Positions 1 through 15,403 are shown, numbered from the stretch's first letter. The stretch is DNA of 64,000 nt from Ostreococcus lucimarinus (GCA_000092065.1 CP000588.1); one strand, 5' to 3'. Translations and numbers: made by a program. The notes: a model not told the origin generated them from the letters alone.

Positions 1-147
1 CCCTAAACCCTAAACCCTAAACCCTAAACCCTAAACCCTAAACCCTAAACCCTAAACCCTAAACCCTAAACCCTAAACCCTAAACCCTAAACCCTAAACC
101 CTAAACCCTAAACCCTAAACCCTAAACCCTAAACCCTAAACCCTAAA
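1..147. repeat. Telomeric repeat array (CCCTAAA)n, about 21 copies, C-rich strand of TTTAGGG
   Basis: Perfect tandem heptamer ccctaaa from position 1. The C-strand lying 5'->3' on the + strand marks this as the left chromosome end. TTTAGGG is the plant/green-algal telomere type. Confidence 0.95.
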
Positions 148-500
148 ACTCGAACCCTAGTCCTCCAAACCCTAGTTTACCCCGCCCTCACTAACGTAGT
201 CCTCAACCCAAAACCAGTATCACACGTTTCCAAAAAACCCAAACCGCGGCCTACGCCCGCGACGACGTAAAGGTCCGGGTCGCCGCCGGCACCCAGAGTG
301 CCGCGAAACGCGCGCGTACACAGATGCAAATGCGTGTTTCATGCGTGTACGCAAAATTCCAGCGTCGTCGACCGCCAGTGTAGTGGTTTCGGTGACCCCT
401 TTACTCGCGCAACTTTCAGGGCGGCAAAAGCGTCATGTTCCAGAGACACTGCTAACCCTAGTTTTCAGCCCTAGTTTCTAACCCTAGTTTCAGGGAGGCG
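148..500. repeat. Degenerate subtelomeric telomere-like repeats
   Basis: Decayed variants of the telomere unit (ctaaaactcgaaccctag, aaccctagttt) and three copies of ccctagtttc at 455-495, separated by unique GC-rich sequence. Confidence 0.6.
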
Positions 501-710
501 CGTTCGAGGGGCGACGCGCTGGGAGACGACGCGGGACGACGACGGTAATGGCGTGGGTGAATCGCTTCGTATTCCTATTCCTTAGCTTTCTAGAGCGCGA
601 TCGTACATGTTCGGTCACACATTCGCATCTTGACGTGCATTGTTTCTTTACATTCGACGACGAGACGCCGTCTCTAAAGGTGGTCGCGGTCAGTCGGTCG
701 CGCTCGTCGA

Positions 711-1823
711 TTAGGAATGAAGGAAATTGATCCCCTTTTTAATGCTAGCTTCCAGTTCTGGTAACATGCTCTCCAACGCGCGCTTCTCGTACGATGATAG
801 CGTTCCAGTGCCCGCCACGCGCTCCACGCCGTTTCGTCCGAGGAGCACCTTGGTGGCAAAAAAAGGCGCCCGCGTCGCCTTGCTCTCGACGTACGCACAC
901 GCCCATATTCCAGACTCACCGCTCAATCCTCTGAGACACGCATCCGCGAACTCCGCCGCGGCAGCGGCCATGGAGAGCGTGGCGCTTCCGGCGCCTCCCT
1001 TCGCTTCGACGACTTCGGTGCCACCGTTTTGGATTCGACTCGTCAACGCGCTCACTTCCTCGGGCGTAAACGAGCAACGCGGAGTGGTTTGAGACAGTAA
1101 CGGCAAAATCGTCGTCCCCGCGTGTCCACCGATCACCGGGACGTCCACCAAAGTCGGGTCGTCGAACCCTTTTGCCGCGGCGACGAACGTCTTCGCCCGC
1201 ATCACGTCGAGGTGCGTCACGCCCAAAAGTTTGCGCGCATCGTAACAACCGTGATTTTTAAACACTTCCGCCGCGATGGGAACCGTTGAATTCACGGGGT
1301 TGGATATGATATTTACGATCGCGTTCGGGCACGTCTTTGCCACACCCTCGCACAGTGTGCGGACGATCCCGGCGTTCACGCCGAACAAGTCGTCGCGCGA
1401 CATGCCCGGTTTGCGCGGCACGCCCGCGGGAATGATGACGAGGTCACATCCTCGTAAACACGCCTCAAGTTCGTCATCACCGACGTATCCGCTCACCTTC
1501 GCTCGCGTGTTCACGTGAGAGACGTCCGCGGCGACGCCTCGAACGACGGGCGCGACGTCGTAGAGTCGCAGTTCCGCCACCTTTGGATTCGCCTTGATGA
1601 ATGCGGAGAGCGTTTGCCCGATACCGCCCGCCGCGCCGAGGACGGCGACGGTGAACGACGCGCGCTTACCACCGATCCCGGACGCACCGAAGAACCAATC
1701 CACGAGCCCGACGCGCGCGGATGGCGCTTCCTGAGGCGTCTGCCGCGACGATGAGGCGGGATCGACGACTTGCGCGCGCAACGCGCCGACGCGACGCGCG
1801 GCGGCACCGACGGCGTTGGACAT
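711..1823 (-). CDS. MDH: NAD-dependent malate dehydrogenase with an N-terminal targeting extension (mitochondrial/glyoxysomal type)
   Basis: The translation contains the NAD-binding motif [12 protein letters not shown], the active-site segment [16 protein letters not shown] and the [13 protein letters not shown] motif. It aligns end to end with organellar NAD-MDH and has an N-terminal extension of about 50 aa. It is transcribed toward the telomere. Confidence 0.9.
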
Positions 1824-1992
1824 CGCACGATCGCCGCGCGCGTTCGCACGCGTCGTCCGTGTCTTTGGAGATCGATCGCCGTCTCGCGGAGGCGACGAGT
1901 GCGGATCGACGGGCTCGATTCGACGGGCGGTTTTCGTTCGGCGTAACGAACTCTCGCGGGGACGTCGGCGACGACGTCAGACCGCGAAGCGC

Positions 1993-2445
1993 ATGCCGTC
2001 GTCCCGCGCGGTCGTCGTCGTCGGCGGTGCATCGATGAAGATGACGTCGCGCAGGTCGCGCGCGCGGCGACTCTCGCGGCGAAGGGCGTCGTTCGACGAC
2101 GACGCCGGGTCGGGTGGCGACGCCGCGACGCCTCGCGTCACCGTGACGTTCGTGGACGCTTGGACGGGCGAGGAGCGCGTCGGGCGAGGCGAGATCGGGG
2201 TGACGAACGTACTCGCGCTCGCGGAGTCGTGCGGGGCGATCGAGGTGAACGACGACTTTTGTCTCGAAGGGCGGTGCGGAACTTGCTCGATGGAGGCGTT
2301 GGGGAACGACGGCGACGGCGACGGCGCGCCTCGGGACGTCGTGCTCGGCTGTCGAACGACGGTGGGCGAGGACGGGCGGTTGCGGTTTCGAGTGGGGTGC
2401 GGCACGACGCCGCGGTTCGATGATGACACGACTTGGTCGATGTAA
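1993..2445 (+). CDS. Small [2Fe-2S] ferredoxin-like protein with a putative N-terminal transit peptide
   Basis: The ORF shows a C-x4-C-x2-C...C cysteine pattern (FCLEGRCGTCSM ... LGCRTT) and a ferredoxin-fold layout (VTVTFVDAWTGEE...GVTNVLALAESCGAIEV). The start at M 1993 is a guess. It sits head-to-head with MDH, 170 bp apart. Confidence 0.45.
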   Translation: MPSSRAVVVVGGASMKMTSRRSRARRLSRRRASFDDDAGSGGDAATPRVTVTFVDAWTGEERVGRGEIGVTNVLALAESCGAIEVNDDFCLEGRCGTCSMEALGNDGDGDGAPRDVVLGCRTTVGEDGRLRFRVGCGTTPRFDDDTTWSM

Positions 2446-2513
2446 TTTATTGATGTTTGTAGTTCTGCTTCCTTTCCTTCTCGACGAGATTCGGCACTTC
2501 TCAACGCGTCCCC

Positions 2514-5500
2514 TCAGAATCCGTCAATCGCTTCGTCGTCTGACTCGGGGTAATTCTCCGCGACTGTCCCCATATTTTTTCTTCTCCTCCCGAACTTCTT
2601 TTGGAACAGTCGTCTTCGTTCGTCGAGAAAGCGCTGTCGTTCGGCGCGTTCAGTGACCTGGCGAAGGTATCGCGCCATCTTTGGTTTTGGTCGGCCGAAG
2701 AAGACGACATTGATTCTGGCGTACTCTCGCAAGCGTTCTACGGCGCTGTTCGTCGTGATAATCTCCTCATCAGTGACGTTCGGGCTCACGTGCTGCACCA
2801 ATGACATGCGAATGACGTTTTTCATTCTGTAGCAAAACTTGGCCGCGATGGTCGCCCGCAAACTTTCCAACGTGCTGTCCGTGAGCGTGATTTCGCGCAC
2901 GCCGACTTCTCCCAAGGCTTGCACCAACAAAATTTTGGGCTTAGTCCTGTGCTGCGCCGCTTTTCGGCGCTTTTCGTTGCCTTCACCGTCAACGATCACC
3001 CCGTTGAGCTCGAGATCGGCGACGAGAAGTTCGTGTAACTCGTTCGGAAACAGCTTGCCGGGCAACGACTTTGACTTGGAGATGCGAATGCGTGTTTTAA
3101 GGAGTCTGCCGCGCATGGTGTCCACCGTGAGCGTCATGTTCGCGCGATATGTATCGAATATTCCCCACGGCACCTCGACGTACGTGATTTGAGTCACTTG
3201 CGTGCCCTCGGTCGCAAAGATATCCTGATAGGTCACTTCTTCCTTCAACTTGAGATACCTCAGGAGAGTGTTGACGCAAAGTCGGCGCGTCGAAGACGTC
3301 GTTGAGTCGATAAACCCGTCGCGTCTGTCGACGTACACTCGCCGTGCAAAAGCACAACCAGCCGCAATCATGAGCCACGTGCCGAGGCTCAAGAGTATCC
3401 AGGGTACGTTCATATCCCACATGAGTGGGTAGCGAAAGTTCTTCGTGACGAACGAAACGCTCTCGGGGATTGTGAACGACGACCCGACGAGTCGATCGAG
3501 GATACGGAAGGCTAACAAGCCAATGAAGAGCGCGCATAACACGCGCTGACTCTGTCTATCGCCGCCAGCATCGTGCTCCATGAACTCGCGGCTTTGGTCA
3601 AGCGTCGCCCTCGTCGTGGCGATTGTTTTTGCTCGGTTGTCTCGCATCACTTCCTTCGCCTGTGCTTGCAAAGTACGCAAAAACTCTTGATTTGCCGAAT
3701 AGTGCTTGACACATCCCTTGACTCTCTTCGCAATCGTCGACTCGAGCACATCAATCGCCAGCGCGTGTTGCAGCCGCTTACTCGATTTCGTGTTCAGCGC
3801 GTAGTACATCGTCGTCCCCGTGATGGGCGTTTCGGGTTCTACGGATTCGCCGAATTGAATAATCGGCGTCTCGCTTGCTACCTCCATGTGTCGTATAGCC
3901 TCACCTAGACGGTACAAATTCGTATTCGTCTCAGCCAAGCTGACTTGAGCGCGACGCAACGTGTCGGGCTCATCGTGAACGCGCTCTAAAATCATTTGTA
4001 AATTTCTTAGCTCTTCCTTCATCGTGGACAATTTTTGGTATAGAACGGTGCAGAAATTTTCCCTCGCCCGCAAAAGGCAAAAGGCCATCAATAATGTCTC
4101 ATGCCGAGCGCAATCGGGACCAGCAAATATTATACCACCGGCACCGATGATGATGACGTCACTGTCGCTCACATCCAGCGCGTAGTGCGTATCGCCGATG
4201 AGCTGCTTAACCTCTGCCTCGATTGAATCGCCGTCGAGGTAGTGCCGCGCGCTGAGCTTGGGCGATATTGTCTCTGCCAGATACAGCGCAAACTTTGGTC
4301 TGTTAGCAAAATCTCCATCGTAAACAGTCTCAAGTACATTTCTCTGATAGAGCGACGTCATGCTCGCCGTGAGCTTGGAACTATCGACTTGCAAGTCGGC
4401 TACGACTCGACTGAGCCAATCGACTGGAATGTCGTTGAGAATTTTCGTCATGACGGATTCAATCTTCATACCGCAAACCAAGTCACCCTCTCGAGCGAAG
4501 CGAAGTCCAAACGACTCGATTTGCGTAATTCCAGCTGCTTCCGGATACTCGACTTCCGCCTCCACGTTGCAATACTGCGCCGCATTCGCCGAAGAGATGC
4601 TAATTCTCGTGAGTCCAACGGGGATCTCGAGACACGTATCCGTGCTCGCGCGATCGACTTCCGAGCTGTAATAGCCACCTTTGTTTCGATCAGAAACCCC
4701 CAAACTTTGCGACAACTCTGTGATTTGCGTACAACTCGTGGGGATCCAGTCGCCAATCAACACGATGACTCGACTCATGGACAGCTGGACGTCCAAATCG
4801 TCCGCTATACTGCTCAAACCTCGTATGGATTCTGAGGCGCGATACGCGTAGCTCGAAAGCGGCCGAGACGCGCTCTTCATGAACTGTCGACAAAGGTACG
4901 GCGAACAGACGTAAGAGACATCTTCGGATTCCGTCACTGTGCTATCGATGTTGAATCCTTCGTCGGAAACCAACTTGAACGTTTCCGTCTTTTCTTCAAA
5001 CACAACCTTGAGCAATGAACCTCTGGGGTCATACATGAATTCATCGCACAGCTCTTTATCTTCCCGAGAAATCGAACCTTGTCGCATGTATTCCAATCCC
5101 TTCTTCGATGGTTGATACGCCATCGTAGATTTCCCGTTGGACGTCGACATCCTTAACGAACGTACCATCCCCGCCTCGACTAAATCGTCGAGATTATCTC
5201 TCGCTTCTTGGGAGATATTCAGCATCATTCGTTTTGAACCGACTTCTTCACCGTATGGGGAGTAATCGTAGTCGAAAACACCAGCCAAGATCGCTTCGTA
5301 AACTAGAACCATGATGTGAAGATAACGAATCCAACGCTCCTTGTCCGTCGCCTTCTCAGCTAATCGACTATGCTTGCTAATAAAGTACAACAATTTGTAG
5401 TGCTCCGGCGTGAGAACGTCTACCACCGAATTCTTGAATAGTTGACTCTTCACTGACGAAGCCACATCTTTCGTTGGCCGGGCTGATGCTACCGCCATAG

Positions 5501-6416
5501 AGCTCGAGAGAGGATCTGAAGACGTCGTCGCGGCCGCGGACGCCTCAATCGCTCGATCAAACCAACGAATCGCGTACCCTTTATCCTGTGGTCTGTACGC
5601 ATCGGCGATCATGAAATCATAATTCAGCTTGTACGTTAAACGCTTGAACTCCTCGTCGTGCGCGTTGAACGCGGCGTCTTCTTTTGTATGACCAGTCACA
5701 AACAAGTACGCATGCGTCATGCCGTGAAGAAGCGCCTCCTTTGTCATTTGCGTCATTTTGAAGCGACGCAAAACGTCCGGCATACGCAAATGCGCCACGC
5801 GTGAATACTGCGACGCCCGTTTCTCGATGACACAGCACACCCCGACGCATAACTGCCTCGGGTTCGCCCCGTGCCACCACTTCGGCACATCGCTGCACAA
5901 ACAATACTTGAATAGACTGTCGAGTTTTGCTTTTTCGCCCATGTCTTCACTCTCATCGTCATTTCTATGCGACGGCGACGCGTGCCAAGAAAACGTGACG
6001 CGGCCGTTGAGTTTGCTTTCGAAATAAATCGAATCGTAGTACGCGAATAAACCGTCGACGTCTGTCCACTCAAGCGGATTGACGTCGCTCAGCGCCGCGC
6101 CGCGCTTCGCAGAGCGCACGCTCGAGAGCGCTTTGCGCCACGAACCGCGCGCTTTGGACTCGTTCGCCGCACCTACGTTAAATATCGACGCTCGCGTTTC
6201 CAGCACGCCTCTCCTTACGTCCTCTTCGTTGATTCTCCCGGTCGGTTGCGACTTTCGTCGTTCGTCTCGCTGAACGCGCAACTCTCTGTCCACGTCTTCT
6301 TTACGCGCGCTCGTGAACGCGACCGTCGCCGGCGTCCGCGCGATCGCACGACCAGGGTCAAGGTTTTCGCCCATCATCGTCGCCCGCGCGCGCTCTAACG
6401 AGTCCCTCAACGCCAT
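2514..6416 (-). CDS. Large (1300 aa) membrane protein with an N-terminal SprT/Spartan-like metalloprotease domain whose catalytic Glu is replaced by Gly
   Basis: Residues about 120-300 align with the Spartan/SprT domain: CVGVCCV...ALLHGMTHAYLFVTGH...NAHDEEF against human SCAGVC...LLHEMIHAYLFVTNN...GHGPEF. The HExxH motif reads HGMTH, so the three zinc-ligand histidines are kept but the general-base Glu is lost. The rest is long with predicted TM helices near the C-terminus; a DUF155/RMD1-like stretch (DVIIIGAGGIIFAG) is possible. Confidence 0.6.
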   Translation of the reverse strand: MALRDSLERARATMMGENLDPGRAIARTPATVAFTSARKEDVDRELRVQRDERRKSQPTGRINEEDVRRGVLETRASIFNVGAANESKARGSWRKALSSVRSAKRGAALSDVNPLEWTDVDGLFAYYDSIYFESKLNGRVTFSWHASPSHRNDDESEDMGEKAKLDSLFKYCLCSDVPKWWHGANPRQLCVGVCCVIEKRASQYSRVAHLRMPDVLRRFKMTQMTKEALLHGMTHAYLFVTGHTKEDAAFNAHDEEFKRLTYKLNYDFMIADAYRPQDKGYAIRWFDRAIEASAAATTSSDPLSSSMAVASARPTKDVASSVKSQLFKNSVVDVLTPEHYKLLYFISKHSRLAEKATDKERWIRYLHIMVLVYEAILAGVFDYDYSPYGEEVGSKRMMLNISQEARDNLDDLVEAGMVRSLRMSTSNGKSTMAYQPSKKGLEYMRQGSISREDKELCDEFMYDPRGSLLKVVFEEKTETFKLVSDEGFNIDSTVTESEDVSYVCSPYLCRQFMKSASRPLSSYAYRASESIRGLSSIADDLDVQLSMSRVIVLIGDWIPTSCTQITELSQSLGVSDRNKGGYYSSEVDRASTDTCLEIPVGLTRISISSANAAQYCNVEAEVEYPEAAGITQIESFGLRFAREGDLVCGMKIESVMTKILNDIPVDWLSRVVADLQVDSSKLTASMTSLYQRNVLETVYDGDFANRPKFALYLAETISPKLSARHYLDGDSIEAEVKQLIGDTHYALDVSDSDVIIIGAGGIIFAGPDCARHETLLMAFCLLRARENFCTVLYQKLSTMKEELRNLQMILERVHDEPDTLRRAQVSLAETNTNLYRLGEAIRHMEVASETPIIQFGESVEPETPITGTTMYYALNTKSSKRLQHALAIDVLESTIAKRVKGCVKHYSANQEFLRTLQAQAKEVMRDNRAKTIATTRATLDQSREFMEHDAGGDRQSQRVLCALFIGLLAFRILDRLVGSSFTIPESVSFVTKNFRYPLMWDMNVPWILLSLGTWLMIAAGCAFARRVYVDRRDGFIDSTTSSTRRLCVNTLLRYLKLKEEVTYQDIFATEGTQVTQITYVEVPWGIFDTYRANMTLTVDTMRGRLLKTRIRISKSKSLPGKLFPNELHELLVADLELNGVIVDGEGNEKRRKAAQHRTKPKILLVQALGEVGVREITLTDSTLESLRATIAAKFCYRMKNVIRMSLVQHVSPNVTDEEIITTNSAVERLREYARINVVFFGRPKPKMARYLRQVTERAERQRFLDERRRLFQKKFGRRRKNMGTVAENYPESDDEAIDGF

Positions 6417-6710
6417 CTCGCGACGCCGAACGCCCCGCGGCCTTCAGAGCGCAACGACTCTGACGCGCGCGCGAACGAACGAACGCGCGTCGTCGCCGTC
6501 GTCGCGCGCGTCGCCGCGTGCGATCGGTCGCGCGTCGTCGTCGTCGTCGTCGTCGTCGCCCGTACCCGCGTCCGCTCCTCCGAACTCGCGCGGCGCGACG
6601 TCTCGACCTCGACCGCCCGCGGGCGTGTGACGACCGGCGGAACGGTCCGGGACGACGCGGACGCGTCGTCACAACCACTCGCACCGCGTCGGTTTGCGGT
6701 GCGGGCGATC

Positions 6711-8939
6711 GGCATGGGACGACGACCGCGGTGGACGACGACGCTCGCGCTCGCCGTCGTCCTCGCGCTCGCCGTCGTCGAACGCGCGCGCGGCGACGAC
6801 GACGTCGACGCGCGAGATGATGGAACGCATCGTCACGGCAATCATCCGTCGACACCCACGCTCGGGGCGTCGTTCAAGGTTGAGATCGCGCACTTATCCA
6901 TCACCACGCCCGCGAGCGTGGTCGGGAAGTATGACATCGCGATAGCCAACTTCGGGCGAACGCTCTACGGCGCATCGCTCAGCGGCGCGTTGACGTATCC
7001 GCACGACGCGAGGCAGCGATTGGGTTGCGGCGCGGGCGCGACGATAGATATTCCAGAATCAGTCAAAGCGGCGCGCATGGCGGTGATTCTACTGCTCGAC
7101 CGCGGATCGTGCGCATTTACAGAGAAAGTGATGAATGGACAGAAGGCGGGAGCGGACGCGGTCATCATCGTTGACGATCGGGACGAGCCGCTATTGACTC
7201 CAGACGCGGCAAACGACGAAGGCACGGGTTCGTACGTCGACAACATCACGATTCCCGCGGCTTTGGCGAGAAAAGTGGACGGTTCGAAGTTCGAAGCTGA
7301 AATCGCACGCAACGAGCGCGTCATGGGGACGATGGATTGGCACGACGTCTTGCCGCATCCCGACGAACGCGTCGAATGGGAACTTTGGGCGGAGACAAAC
7401 GACGAGTGCGGACACACATGTCAGCAACAGAACGCATTCATGCGTGACTTTACACCGATCGCGAAGAGCTTAGAGCAAGGAGGGTACACGCAGTTTACCC
7501 CGCACTACATCACTTGGCAATGTATCGACAATCCGCCCACGACCGAGGCGTGTAAGGCGCAGTGCATAAATGTAGGCCGCTACTGCGCGCCGGATCCAGA
7601 CGCGGACATTCACGCGGGTTACTCTGGCGCTGACATCGTCATCGACAACCTTCGAGCGCTTTGTGCTTTTGACGTCGCGAATAAATCCAACGCGCCCTGG
7701 ATGTGGTGGGATTACGTCTCAGATTTCTCTGACGAGTGCACGATGGGCAATGGCAAATTCGCCATGCGCTCTTGCGCGGAGAAGGTAGCGAAGAACATCG
7801 GCATCGACGTCGACGCCATCAACGCTTGCATGGGTGATACTAACGGAGATCACACGAATCCTATGCTAGAAGCGCAAATCGCGGCGCAGAGTCCACCTGC
7901 GGGGAGTTCTCGGCGCGACATCCGGCTTCTTCCCACCATCTTGATCAACGGCGAGCGATACTCGGGAAAAATCGCGCGCGGCGAGGTGCTGACGGCACTT
8001 TGCGCCGGTTTCGATCAGGCATCTGTTCCGGCCATGTGTAGCGATGCCGGTTTGATGCACGCAGAGTGCGTGCGTGGTCAACAGGGAGACGTCACGTGCG
8101 CGGCGGATAAGGAGGGCGACGGGAAGACGGCGTGCAAGGAGACGGGATCGTTTCCGTATTACGAGTGCGCGTGTCCGGAAGGTTCCCAAAGCGTCGTCGG
8201 TCACGATGGCACGGAAAAGTGCGAATCCGTTAACATGTGCGCTCAAGCGATGCACGACATGGCGAACTGCTCGTGCGACCGTTGTGTGTGCACGAATCTC
8301 CAGCACGGAAAGTTTCAGTGTAAAACCGAAGCCGCCACGGCGTGCGACGAGCCTCTTTCGCGAGCCGCCACGTCTCAGGGGGGATGCTGGGCGAAGGACG
8401 GGTTCAGCGCGTGCGTCGATAATATTGACGCAAAACGCAAAGCGAGTAGAGAGGGGGGAAATCCCGACGAGGTACCAAGCGTCGTGTGCAAGTGCCCGAA
8501 GGGCTTTGAGGGCGACGGAACGACGTCGTGCGTGGAAATTGACGAGTGCAAAACAAAGTGCAAAGACTCGAACGCAAAGTGCGTCAACACGTATGGAAGT
8601 TACAACTGTACGTGTTCTGCGGGATACGCGGCGACGTATCAACCCGAGCCTGTCGATGATTGGATTTGTCTGTCGACGCATCGCAGCGGCGGCGCGAGTT
8701 TGGTGTTCACGAGCGTGTTGATGTCAATCCTCGGCGTTGCGAGCGCGTCGTACGCGTTTTACCAGTACCGCGCGCGTTCGTACATGGATCGGGAAATTCG
8801 ACAAATCATGGCGCAGTACATGCCTCTGGATCAACATCCGCCAGACGACGACGACGACTCGCCTTACGATCAACCGCCGCAGCGCGACTCCGCGAAGCAA
8901 AACATTTTACCGACGAGCATGGAACTGAGCGACTTTTGA
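6711..8939 (+). CDS. VSR: Plant-type vacuolar sorting receptor (VSR/BP-80 family)
   Basis: Signal peptide (MGRRPRWTTTLALAVVLALAVV), PA domain, cysteine-rich EGF-like repeats (CKCPKGFEGDGTTSCVEIDEC...NTYGSYNCTC), a single TM helix and a cytosolic tail with the YMPL sorting motif (IRQIMAQYMPLD) typical of plant VSRs. The first in-frame ATG at 6627 lies upstream of the signal peptide, so I favour M at 6711. Confidence 0.9.
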   Translation, partial: GMGRRPRWTTTLALAVVLALAVVERARGDDDVDARDDGTHRHGNHPSTPTLGASFKVEIAHLSITTPASVVGKYDIAIANFGRTLYGASLSGALTYPHDARQRLGCGAGATIDIPESVKAARMAVILLLDRGSCAFTEKVMNGQKAGADAVIIVDDRDEPLLTPDAANDEGTGSYVDNITIPAALARKVDGSKFEAEIARNERVMGTMDWHDVLPHPDERVEWELWAETNDECGHTCQQQNAFMRDFTPIAKSLEQGGYTQFTPHYITWQCIDNPPTTEACKAQCINVGRYCAPDPDADIHAGYSGADIVIDNLRALCAFDVANKSNAPWMWWDYVSDFSDECTMGNGKFAMRSCAEKVAKNIGIDVDAINACMGDTNGDHTNPMLEAQIAAQSPPAGSSRRDIRLLPTILINGERYSGKIARGEVLTALCAGFDQASVPAMCSDAGLMHAECVRGQQGDVTCAADKEGDGKTACKETGSFPYYECACPEGSQSVVGHDGTEKCESVNMCAQAMHDMANCSCDRCVCTNLQHGKFQCKTEAATACDEPLSRAATSQGGCWAKDGFSACVDNIDAKRKASREGGNPDEVPSVVCKCPKGFEGDGTTSCVEIDECKTKCKDSNAKCVNTYGSYNCTCSAGYAATYQPEPVDDWICLSTHRSGGASLVFTSVLMSILGVASASYAFYQYRARSYMDREIRQIMAQYMPLDQHPPDDDDDSPYDQPPQRDSAKQNILPTSMELSDF

Positions 8940-9023
8940 TAAAGAAATAGACAGCGCATAAAATGAATGATCGTCGCGCCATCACGTCTGTTCCGGCCAT
9001 CGTTCTCACAGTTCTCGTAATCG

Positions 9024-9143
9024 ACGCGTTGGAGAGCATGTTACCAGAACTGGAAGCTAGCATTAAAAAGGGGATCAATTTCCTTCATTCCTAATCGACG
9101 GGCGCGACCGACTGACCGCGACCACCTTTAGAGACGGCGTCTC
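9024..9143. repeat. Inverted near-identical copy (120 bp, 1 mismatch) of the MDH 3' end and 3'UTR (partner is reverse complement of 661-780)
   Basis: Direct comparison: 9026-9143 equals the reverse complement of 661-780 with one mismatch. Diverged similarity extends about 50 bp further (9144-9200 versus RC of 601-660). On the + strand the copy encodes the MDH C-terminus [22 protein letters not shown] inside the VSR/adenylate-kinase 3'UTR region. Confidence 0.9.
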
Positions 9144-9205
9144 GTCGTCGGATGTAAAGAAGCAACGCAACTTGTCGAAGCGTGTCGAATATCGTTCGTG
9201 ATAAC

Positions 9206-10147
9206 TTACATAGCCTTGATGAGACGTTCGATATCCTTGAACACGTCTTGCTTGGCGCGGTTACCGTCCACGTTCTTCATTATGCTCTCGTACTTGCCGA
9301 CGACGGCGTCGACATTCTTGTGGTGCACAGCCAAGCGGTTGGCCGCCTTCTCTTCGGTGTCGTCACTGCGCTGCGTCAAGCGCGCCGCAATTTCGGGCGT
9401 TGGCGGCGGGAAAAAGGTCATGTGGTAGATGGTACCATCCACCGGATCGAGTCGACGACCGACGACGCGGTCGATTAAAATTTCATCCGGCACGTCGAGC
9501 AACAGGAACAAGTCCGGGTCGATCCCACTTTCGATGAGCGCTTCGGCCTGTTCCTCGCTTCTTGGGTAGCCGTCTAACAGCCAACCCTTGGCGCAGTCGG
9601 GTTGCGCCAAGCGATCCTTCACCATGGTGACGACGACTTCGTTGGGCACGAGGTCGCCTCGGTCCATGTACTCCTTCGCTTTCTTACCGGCGTCGGTACC
9701 GGCCGCGACGGCCGCGCGCAAGAGATCACCGGCGGAGATATGCGTGAGGCCAAACTTCTTGACGATCATCTCGCACTGCGTTCCCTTCCCGCTCGCCGGG
9801 GCACCGGCGATGACGATTCTCTTTTGCTTGGACGCGCCTCCGATCGTGCTCGACTTCGAAGCCTTGATCGCGAGCGCCGCGGCCGCGATCGCCACGGCGG
9901 ATCCGACCGCGATCTGCGCCGACGGTACCGACGGTTTCGCCACCGGCGCCGCCGCCACCTTCTTCGCGCTCACCTGCGCGAGCTCGCGTCGCGGATACAA
10001 CGCCGACGCATCCGCGGCGGTCGACGCCGACGACGCGCGCGCCAAGACGACGCCGCGCGCGTGCGACTTGCCCGCGGCGCGACGACGGAAGGTCGTCGTC
10101 GTCGTCGCGCACGTCGCGTTCGCGTTACAGCTCGTGGACGCTATCAT
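9206..10147 (-). CDS. ADK: Adenylate kinase with an N-terminal organellar targeting extension
   Basis: P-loop IVIAGAPASGKGTQC, plus GDLLR, LLDGYPR and an LID region (GRRLDPVDGTIYH). About 100 aa of S/A-rich presequence precede the kinase core. Confidence 0.9.
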   Translation of the reverse strand: MIASTSCNANATCATTTTTFRRRAAGKSHARGVVLARASSASTAADASALYPRRELAQVSAKKVAAAPVAKPSVPSAQIAVGSAVAIAAAALAIKASKSSTIGGASKQKRIVIAGAPASGKGTQCEMIVKKFGLTHISAGDLLRAAVAAGTDAGKKAKEYMDRGDLVPNEVVVTMVKDRLAQPDCAKGWLLDGYPRSEEQAEALIESGIDPDLFLLLDVPDEILIDRVVGRRLDPVDGTIYHMTFFPPPTPEIAARLTQRSDDTEEKAANRLAVHHKNVDAVVGKYESIMKNVDGNRAKQDVFKDIERLIKAM

Positions 10148-10398: not shown

Positions 10399-11802
10399 AT
10401 GGAACGTCGCCACACGATGACGAGCGCGCGCGCGACGACGACGACGGCGTCGACGGCGGATACGAAGGCGAAGACCGTGGCGTACAACGACGTCGATATG
10501 GTCACCGACCGAAGACACTCGAGCGCGAGCGAAGAAAACTCGGGGGCGAGCACGACAGACTTTCAAGACGAAGACGCGCCGACGTCGAGAAGCGCGACGC
10601 CCGCGCCCGGACGATTGAACGTCGAGCTCGACGTCGATCGCGAACAACGCGATGAGTATCAAGGCGTGAAATCCATCGTGCGAAACACCGTGCGAGGGTG
10701 GGCAAACGTCGAAAACGCGGCGCTCGAGGTGAGCCCGGTGCGAGGCGGGATCACGAACGCGCTGTTCAAGGTTCGTCTGGCGCAAGACGCGGCGCCGACG
10801 ACGACGAAGGATCCGATCGCACGCGCGGTGGTGGTGAGAGTTTTTGGCAAGGGTACCGATCAATTCATCACTCATCGCAAAGTACAAGGCGAGACGTCGC
10901 ACGTTTTGAACGAACACGGGTTCGGGGCAAAAGTGCTCGGCGTTTTTTCAAATGGGTTGGTTGAAGAGTTCATCGAAGCCGAGAGTGTGGCTCCGGAGGA
11001 GTTGGCGAACGGAGGGATTTTGCTTCGACGAGTCGCGGCGCAGATGCGACGCTTGCACAAGGAAGTGGCGCCGGATTTAGTGCCTCGCGCCGCGGCTGGC
11101 GAGACCATCGCGCGCGCCCGAGCCAACGCTATCTGGGACACGCTTCAGTTGTGGTTCGACTTGGCGTACGGTGTTGCCAATGATCCGACCATTTTCAAGA
11201 ATGACGCGCGCAAAGAGTCGATTTTGGCATCGTTGAAGATCGATTCGGAATCGCGTCAAATGCTGTTCGAAGTCATTCGCGCGAGGTGCGAAGCCGTGAA
11301 CAGTCAGACAGTGTACTGTCACAACGACATTCACGCCGGTAACTTTTTGCTGAACAGAAAGACGGACAACCTGACGCTCATCGATTACGAGTACGCCGAC
11401 TACGGTCCCCGTGCGTTTGACATGGCCAATCTGTTTTGCGAATTCGCCGGGTTCGAGTGCAACTACGATCAGTTTCCGACGTGCGAACTTCGCCGCGAGT
11501 TTTACTCGGCGTACTTGCACACCACGGTCGATGCGGAGATTGACGCGCTCGAAGCGGAAGTCGCGGCGTGGACGCCCGTGACGCACGCATTCTGGGCGCT
11601 CTGGGCGGTGATTCAAGCCAAGTATAGCGCCATCGATTTTGACTTTTTGGGTTTCGCCGCGATGCGCATGAAGGTGTTTTACGCCTCTGCTCTCGCGCCG
11701 AGTGAGTGGGTGCCGACGAACGCCGCGCTCGGTGGACAGCACGGCACGCCGGAGAAGAGTGTGGGTTGGAATGCCACGGCTGAGGGAAACGTCGTGCTTT
11801 GA
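10399..11802 (+). CDS. Choline/ethanolamine kinase
   Basis: Brenner motif CHNDIHAGNFLL and the choline-kinase motif IDYEYADYGPRAFDMANLFCEFAG. The N-terminal ATP-binding region is GGITNALFKV. Confidence 0.85.
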   Translation: MERRHTMTSARATTTTASTADTKAKTVAYNDVDMVTDRRHSSASEENSGASTTDFQDEDAPTSRSATPAPGRLNVELDVDREQRDEYQGVKSIVRNTVRGWANVENAALEVSPVRGGITNALFKVRLAQDAAPTTTKDPIARAVVVRVFGKGTDQFITHRKVQGETSHVLNEHGFGAKVLGVFSNGLVEEFIEAESVAPEELANGGILLRRVAAQMRRLHKEVAPDLVPRAAAGETIARARANAIWDTLQLWFDLAYGVANDPTIFKNDARKESILASLKIDSESRQMLFEVIRARCEAVNSQTVYCHNDIHAGNFLLNRKTDNLTLIDYEYADYGPRAFDMANLFCEFAGFECNYDQFPTCELRREFYSAYLHTTVDAEIDALEAEVAAWTPVTHAFWALWAVIQAKYSAIDFDFLGFAAMRMKVFYASALAPSEWVPTNAALGGQHGTPEKSVGWNATAEGNVVL

Positions 11803-15235: not shown

Positions 15236-15345
15236 GCGGACATTCGGGGACATTCGGGGACATTCGGACATTCGGACATTCGGACATTCGGGGACGATCG
15301 GACATTCGGGGACGATCGGACATTCGGGGACGATCGGACATTCGG
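15236..15345. repeat. Compound minisatellite (cattcgggga / cattcgga / 18-mer cattcggggacgatcgga x3) in a bidirectional promoter
   Basis: Direct tandem units are visible. The array lies between divergent genes starting at 15131 (-) and 15404 (+). Confidence 0.85.
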
Positions 15346-15403
15346 CACGCGCGCGCGACCCGCGTCGCGCGCGCGTCGCGATTCATTCGACGACGGGCCG
15401 ACG

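Follow-up and report, generated by a model that had tools for sequence, protein, structure and literature searches.

What does it mean that the 3' end of a single gene is found twice, in opposite directions and nearly unchanged, close to the end of a chromosome? This question is raised by a locus of Ostreococcus lucimarinus CCE9901 within a stretch of 64,000 nucleotides (GCA_000092065.1 CP000588.1; referred to here as the window), in which two inverted copies of the end of the malate dehydrogenase gene (MDH) bracket a segment that also carries a vacuolar sorting receptor-like gene (VSR) and is adjoined by the adenylate kinase gene (ADK). The start of the window is the chromosome end, because the telomere repeat (CCCTAAA)n fills its first 147 positions, and the subtelomeric location proposed in a first-pass annotation of the window was therefore correct. 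We consider it very probable that the two copies, which are the 145-bp arms of an inverted repeat (IR), delimit a natural flip/flop region of the chromosome end, which inverts recurrently by recombination between the arms.

The extent of the repeat was determined by a repeat search and by local alignment. The two arms (coordinates in Table 1) are 145 nt each and are spaced 8,244 nt apart, with 141 of the 145 positions complementary (97%) and the four mismatches located at window positions 639, 643, 654 and 704. The arm ends are sharp, since the flanks on both sides align no better than shuffled sequence; the local alignment score was 14 for the outer flanks (past 636 and 9169) and 13 for the inner flanks (past 780 and 9025), compared with a shuffle mean of 13.3 for both. 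The same flank alignment, being at the level of shuffled sequence, ruled out a duplicate reaching further towards the ADK stop. The arm contains the last 22 codons of MDH and the stop codon (711-780) plus 75 nt of 3' flank (636-710), and not the 19 codons and about 65 bp of 3' untranslated region (UTR) given by the first-pass annotation. The core described there, 661-780, does have a single mismatch (704/9101), with 9025-9144 as its partner instead of 9026-9143, and the weaker similarity that was said to continue for about 50 bp exists but covers just 25 nt (636-660, 22 of 25 matching). Two further descriptions held: the second copy lies in the shared 3' region of VSR and ADK, between the VSR stop at 8939 and the ADK stop at 9206, and it translates in frame as the MDH C terminus, although this mini open reading frame (ORF) is an incidental by-product of the copied MDH tail.

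Sub-patterns of the arm of 39 and 48 nt were each found at two sites in the 64-kb window, where the chance expectation is 0, and the repeat search found no second long inverted repeat of equal quality in the window. An exact scan of the JGI metagenomes using the 48-nt IR core returned nine stretches, all nine of them at this locus. With two sites in the window and the JGI matches at one locus, the block does not behave as a high-copy dispersed repeat, an outcome that had been named as contradicting a duplication derived specifically from MDH.

To describe the arrangement of the segment we refer to the window-like state, with MDH on the telomere side and VSR convergent with ADK, as orientation A, and to the flipped state, with VSR on the telomere side and MDH convergent with ADK, as orientation B. 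BLAST searches identified contigs from at least 25 independent assemblies that, outside 636-9169, are colinear with the window, while their interior lies in one orientation or the other. Every contig covering both segment ends had the two arms intact, all four junction types were found (subtelomere/arm/MDH, subtelomere/arm/VSR, ADK/arm/VSR and ADK/arm/MDH), and telomere repeats were reached by contigs of the A type and of the B type. An MDH protein query retrieved ten contigs from marine metagenomes, with identities to the window of 99.0-99.8%, and 10 of 10 had orientation B. That count was set aside as biased to B, as the ranking was by flanking DNA and MDH is interior in B, and the survey was redone with genes outside the segment (ADK and choline kinase) and with the IR core. 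Seven A and three B places were obtained with ADK, more A (L039-L041) and more B (L045, and the L004 contig again) with choline kinase, and three A and three B among the nine stretches of the IR-core scan. Combined, these orientation-neutral queries gave 13 A and 8 B unique wild contigs, each counted once and with assemblies made at k=127 left out. As judged from these assemblies, wild populations carry both orientations of the block. The occurrence of the 8.2-kb interior in both orientations in many independent assemblies bears out the earlier suggestion that the two copies could drive inversion. We found no earlier report of the inversion in the literature searched, the coverage of which was incomplete.

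The arms of most wild contigs are identical over 137-145 nt; typically the identical run comprises arm positions 9-145 (137 nt), and the arms differ at positions 4 and 8 only. Four contigs from Tara assemblies with k=127 (L009 and L042-L044) were dropped from the orientation counts because k is shorter than this identical stretch. A strict subset was also defined, in which the longest identical arm run is at most 107 nt and is resolved by any k-mer of at least 108, the arms being distinguishable through a T at position 69, a T at position 39 or a shortened arm. In this subset orientation A is represented by the window, L013, L015, L016 and L040, and orientation B by L001, L004 and L005. Among scaffolds resolved by paired ends, L007 and L008 are B and L019 and L020 are A, and the Sanger-finished reference is orientation A. 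Both orientations were accepted because of the strict subset, the paired-end scaffolds, the Sanger-finished A and the ancestral state of the B-type MDH-ADK junction, which is described below.

The 8.24-kb interior was aligned from 19-21 genomes, all set to one orientation (robust set, n = 21). No fixed A-B difference was found in the interior in either the strict or the robust set, while 12 sites (strict) and 28 sites (robust) were polymorphic within both A and B. Mean distances within and between the orientation classes were 13.85 and 13.87 for the strict set (p = 0.45), and 15.7 and 17.1 for the robust set (p = 0.025). On Neighbor Joining (NJ) trees the minimum number of orientation changes was three (strict) and five (robust), the robust tree requiring 7.3 changes on average when labels were assigned randomly. 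Some pairs of opposite orientation were almost identical: L001 (B) and L033 (A) differ at 1 of 8238 interior and 4 of 4206 flank positions, and L018 (B) and L015 (A) at 2 of 8238 and 2 of 4206, respectively. Since there are no fixed differences, near-identical haplotypes occur in opposite orientations and the trees require multiple changes, these comparisons indicate that flipping has recurred, in all likelihood through recombination between the arms. The association of orientation with haplotype in the robust set, weak but significant, suggests that the states are heritable yet labile, unlike random choices made by an assembler. Contigs spanning both arms imply that one orientation is dominant per sample, so that switching would not be rapid on the timescale of a bloom. 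Given near-identical haplotypes at distances of 3-4e-4 and a mutation rate of about 5e-10 per site per generation, the expected rate would be roughly 1e-6 flips per generation or higher.

A single inversion, whether old or recent, with A and B as stable alleles and with polymorphism shared through gene conversion, double crossovers or mixing in consensus sequences, is an unlikely account of these data. The robust-set association (p = 0.025) would fit such a history, as would the uniformity of some clades (L003, L006 and L026 are all B), and haplotypes may blend in metagenome contigs. It is opposed by the lack of any fixed difference in 8.24 kb in the presence of 12-28 sites polymorphic in both classes, and by opposite orientations, on two backgrounds, among haplotypes that are 4-5 nt apart over the 8.2-kb interior and 4.2 kb of flank. 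In addition, the IR is older than a lineage that is about 6% diverged, so an old unique inversion should show divergence between A and B.

Several considerations weigh against recurrent inversion. Flipping is deduced from contigs and not from a witnessed flip, and the contigs from which orientation was read are assembled population consensus sequences, not reads. Assemblies made with k=141 resolve arms identical over 137 nt narrowly, through three k-mers, and at k=127 that stretch is unresolvable. The chimeric contig L002 shows that assemblers can mishandle the repeat, and random choices by an assembler would likewise yield no association with haplotype; the strict subset and the robust-set association argue against such choices, and some miscalls may remain. 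Arrangements that are undifferentiated could reflect gene flux between A and B instead of new flips. An arm length of 145 bp is short for efficient non-allelic homologous recombination (NAHR) in many organisms. Lastly, the sequence fits both of the modes of origin considered below for the repeat, staggered breaks and templated insertion.

The first of these concerns can be put as an explicit alternative, namely that there is a single natural orientation and that the other was produced by arbitrary traversal of the inverted repeat during assembly. The joining of ADK to both ends of the segment in the palindromic L002, the crossing by the Tara contigs of an identical stretch longer than their k, and the many contigs that break in or at the arms are all what such an artefact would produce. 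It is nevertheless very improbable, because orientation B is found in contigs with distinguishable arms, in two paired-end scaffolds (L007 and L008) and in JGI contigs (L026, L027 and L030), because orientation A is likewise found in distinguishable contigs besides the Sanger-finished reference, because the MDH-ADK junction of type B is the ancestral adjacency in three sister lineages, and because orientation has a phylogenetic signal (p = 0.025) unexpected from random choices. The first-pass annotation had proposed that an assembly artefact would overturn its interpretation of the repeat; the strict subset and the paired-end scaffolds, each showing A and B, do not point that way. In the contig L002 itself (L002:1-10401, ERZ10646520 contig_22532) the invertible segment is flanked on either side by sequence of ADK and choline kinase, the identity to the window is lower (98.3%) and the ADK copy is frameshifted. 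The inverted repeat probably gave rise to a chimera during assembly, the alternative being a real palindromic chromosome end.

Variants within the arms provide a record of exchange between them. Those at arm positions 4 and 8 remain with the flank, while the T/C variant at position 69 of the telomere-side arm is seen in A and in B, and the telomere-side arms of L004 and L008 carry ADK-type bases. In the lineage of 94% identity (L025 and L031) both of the arm types that were sampled share a derived G at position 63, and between lineages with an overall identity of 94% the arms agree at about 99%. Because the 94% lineage already has the IR, the repeat is not young and its identity must have been maintained. 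The high identity had first been attributed to a recent duplication or to ongoing gene conversion; the shared arm variants speak for ongoing exchange, and a very recent duplication does not fit a repeat that predates a lineage diverged by about 6%. Each arm is the real MDH 3' end in one orientation, so neither is permanently a pseudo copy. As each is a functional gene end in one of the states, purifying selection would be added on both arms.

The mechanism best supported by these variants is homologous recombination (NAHR) between the inverted arms. An intrachromosomal crossover of this kind would flip the 8.2-kb interior while the arms, the subtelomere and ADK hold their position, and the same exchange together with gene conversion would keep the arms nearly identical. 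MDH is complete in both states because the arm holds its last 22 codons and 3' flank, and the other arm always lies 85 nt past VSR in the sense direction, whichever the state. The flip exchanges the gene that is adjacent to the telomere and the one that converges on ADK. A TGTAA motif inside the arm lies 58 nt after the MDH stop and is also the first TGTAA past VSR, at 213 nt. This motif occurs within 250 nt downstream of 11 of the 30 long ORFs in the window, an approximately 3-fold enrichment, and there is weak evidence that the copy in the arm might act as a poly(A) signal. Its use by VSR is speculative, because TGTAA is only weakly enriched after genes here.

We regard as decidedly doubtful a reading in which the flip controls expression heritably but reversibly, as a eukaryotic counterpart of phase variation, and in which selection, not neutral mutation pressure, holds both states at intermediate frequency in the ocean. 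If it were true, MDH or VSR would be placed about 0.6 kb from the telomere, and expression could be altered by a telomere position effect or by antisense 3' overlap with ADK. A programmed switch, in which a site-specific recombinase acts on the arms as in FLP/2-micron or the bacterial invertons, is extremely improbable, even though a segment bounded by an IR and present in both orientations at intermediate frequency is what such a system would generate. A Pfam scan found no recombinase or integrase domain in any of the five proteins in or beside the segment (0 of 5), the arms are a duplicated gene end and not dedicated sites, and the contigs containing both arms, with one dominant orientation implied per sample, point to slow switching.

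Which of the two orders is ancestral was examined in three sister lineages, found through homologues of the 1300-aa protein encoded in the segment (59-65% amino-acid identity in this protein, the lineages having about 68-77% nucleotide identity). In L021/L022 the order is VSR(-), 1199 aa(+), 164 aa(-), MDH(+), ADK(-), which is the B order, and in L024 it is 1282 aa(+), MDH(+), ADK(-). The lineage of L034-L036 is scrambled, yet ADK(+) converges on MDH(-), its 339-aa gene being 85% identical to ADK. No inverted copy of the MDH 3' end was found in the three sister lineages examined. With MDH and ADK tail to tail and the IR absent in all three, the B-like order is ancestral and the telomere-side arm is the derived duplicate. 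The IR does not extend beyond the O. lucimarinus lineage and its 94%-identical relative, and no IR-free O. lucimarinus haplotype was found among the contigs examined. In the Ostreococcus-like contigs L034:1-19814, L035 and L036 the full order is VTC+, 150 aa-, 1277 aa+, 344 aa-, choline kinase-, ADK+, MDH-, VSR+, 651 aa+, PsbP+, and these genes lie internally. The differences between lineages suggest that the neighborhood has undergone several rearrangements and that the region may be rearrangement-prone.

The arm corresponds to an MDH 3' end that was ancestrally single-copy and native to one breakpoint, as expected of staggered breaks. In the inversions of this type studied by Ranz et al. (2007, PMC1885836), the inverted copies at the breakpoints measured from 46 bp to 1.9 kb. 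Most simply, the telomere-side arm would have been made together with the first inversion by breaks of this type, or else by templated insertion. We leave staggered breaks as an inference, because a separate templated insertion leaves identical junctions. The likeness to the Drosophila cases consists of an ancestrally single-copy gene end that is inverted at both ends of the segment, a length of 145 bp that is within the reported range, and an un-inverted order in the outgroups. The Drosophila duplicates, however, decay (to about 88% identity) and their inversions are fixed, whereas the Ostreococcus duplicates are 97-100% identical and appear to mediate further flips, and the staggered-break origin is in this case our own inference.

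The same comparison with the sister lineages bears on whether the arms are the terminal inverted repeats of a transposon, or the block a dispersed 3'UTR or terminator module. This is almost certainly not the case. The inverted termini of 145 bp would be appropriate, and directly outside the arms there is an imperfect direct repeat matching at 6 of 8 positions (TCTTGACG at 628-635 and ACTTGTCG at 9170-9177), which was noticed post hoc. This repeat, which resembles a target-site duplication, was put down to chance, given the synteny of the interior with relatives and the lack of a transposase, none having been detected by the Pfam scan among the five proteins in or beside the segment. Against a mobile element are also the confinement of the core to this locus in the JGI metagenomes, with two copies in the window, the synteny of the interior genes and of the MDH-ADK adjacency in sister lineages without the repeat, and the composition of the arm, which is MDH coding sequence followed by the native 3' flank. 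In RNA folding, the UTR portion of the arm did not differ from shuffled sequences (z = -0.29), and the idea of a hairpin terminator was dropped since its fold is like that of shuffled sequence. The mobile 3'UTR/terminator module offered in the first-pass annotation was thus not supported, all nine JGI core matches being at one locus and the UTR having no special fold.

Recurrent inversion of the kind proposed here has been described elsewhere. The closest parallel is the 24-kb flip/flop region on chromosome XIV of Saccharomyces, which has a homogenized IR of about 4 kb and has undergone many re-inversions (Salzberg et al. 2022, PMC9731477). Both are multi-gene nuclear segments bounded by an IR, with both orientations common in nature and re-inversions apparent on trees of single nucleotide polymorphisms (SNPs); in both the arms are homogenized within strains and orientation seems stable on short timescales. 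They differ in that the yeast IR of about 4 kb contains whole sporulation genes, while the Ostreococcus arms are 145 bp of gene tail and 3' flank. The yeast region is near the centromere and the Ostreococcus region about 490 bp from the telomere array, and the polymorphism is genus-wide in yeast but the IR is limited to the O. lucimarinus lineage and its 94% relative in Ostreococcus. Human inversions mediated by IRs can be recurrent too, and their recurrence leaves the same mark (PMC3961182; Porubsky et al., bioRxiv 10.1101/2021.12.20.472354). Common to both systems are NAHR between inverted repeats, as we propose it for Ostreococcus, and SNPs or haplotypes found in both orientations as the signal of recurrence. 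Human IRs, in contrast, usually measure from kilobases to hundreds of kilobases, humans are diploids with obligate sex whereas Ostreococcus is haploid and mostly clonal with enormous populations, and the human data are from genotyped individuals and ours from metagenome contigs. In plastid genomes, homologous recombination between IRs of 10-30 kb inverts a single-copy region with no change of gene content, and the isomers are roughly equimolar within the cell. The Ostreococcus segment, unlike these, is nuclear and single-copy, with one orientation apparently dominant per population sample.

The present case is distinctive for its short arms (145 bp), for arms that are gene tails and not whole genes or segmental duplications, for its site at a chromosome end and for its detection in ocean metagenomes of a haploid picoalga. 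It reveals no new kind of mechanism, flip/flop inversion polymorphism mediated by IRs being already known. If our reading is correct, a 145-bp duplication of a gene tail suffices for the repeated toggling of a four-gene block at a chromosome end in a globally abundant picoalga, and the locus would be a clean example of a duplicated gene end of which both copies stay functional, one per state. Ordinary metagenome assemblies are enough to read out the polymorphism directly. To our knowledge, the sexual cycle of Ostreococcus has never been observed, and the flip region could serve as a natural reporter of homologous recombination activity in this genus. It also offers a candidate locus for the study of position effects close to algal telomeres. 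Reference-based work calls for some caution, as the CCE9901 reference represents one of two common isomers.

Table 1. Features of the chromosome end in the window
Feature	Position	Strand	Remarks
Telomere repeat array (CCCTAAA)n	1-147	+	Read directly; tandem repeat family D1
Gene-free subtelomeric spacer with degenerate telomere-like motifs (aaccctag...)	148-635		
Telomere-side IR arm	636-780	-	Functional MDH 3' end of the window; stop 711-713, TGTAA 648-652
Malate dehydrogenase (MDH), 370 aa, XP_001419252	711-1823	-	Pfam Ldh_1_N, Ldh_1_C
Invertible interior, 8,244 bp	781-9024		Both orientations in wild populations
Conserved 150-aa gene	1993-2445	+	Called in all related contigs; orthologue in sister lineages
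1300-aa conserved protein, XP_001419253	2514-6416	-	Precomputed Pfam PF27231, PF27230
Vacuolar sorting receptor-like gene (VSR), 741 aa from ATG	6714-8939	+	Pfam VSR_TRX (5e-83), PA, EGF_CA
ADK-side IR arm	9025-9169	+	'Remnant' copy in the window; functional MDH 3' end in flipped genomes
Adenylate kinase (ADK)	9206-10147	-	Fixed neighbor outside the invertible segment; Pfam ADK (1e-49)
Choline kinase	10399-11802	+	
VTC-domain gene	After choline kinase	+	

The ADK-side arm begins 85 nt past the VSR stop and ends 36 nt from the ADK stop. The gene identities given by the first-pass annotation agree with Pfam for MDH, VSR and ADK, while the SprT-like match of the 1300-aa protein was sub-threshold in our Pfam scan. 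The 150-aa protein matched no Pfam family in that scan. The 741-aa VSR protein of the window has no exact match in the protein collection, MDH, the 1300-aa protein and ADK have GenBank accessions that follow one another directly, and the ADK entry is a partial protein (229 aa). Taken together, these three observations make the reference annotation of this chromosome end look incomplete.

The subtelomeric spacer remains with the telomere-side arm in either orientation, and by BLAST it is 91-98% identical among wild contigs, as against >99% for the rest of the locus. A different chromosome end is found in L001 (L001:2300-2800, a 493,688-bp contig of JGI sample 3300047157, orientation B). Its telomere-side arm is shortened to 107 nt and is joined to foreign sequence at CCCTAAAGG. 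About 160 nt beyond this junction there is an interstitial (CCCTAAA)~6 tract, and farther out about 4.8 kb of additional DNA, which codes for a protein containing F5/8 type C (discoidin) repeats. Breakage, telomere healing and then the capture of another end could have produced this terminus, or the contig could be chimeric. Elsewhere in the window, a short intergenic tandem array at 15237-15353 (family D10) consists of 8-10-nt units, CGGACATT / CGGGGACATT / CGGGGACGAT.

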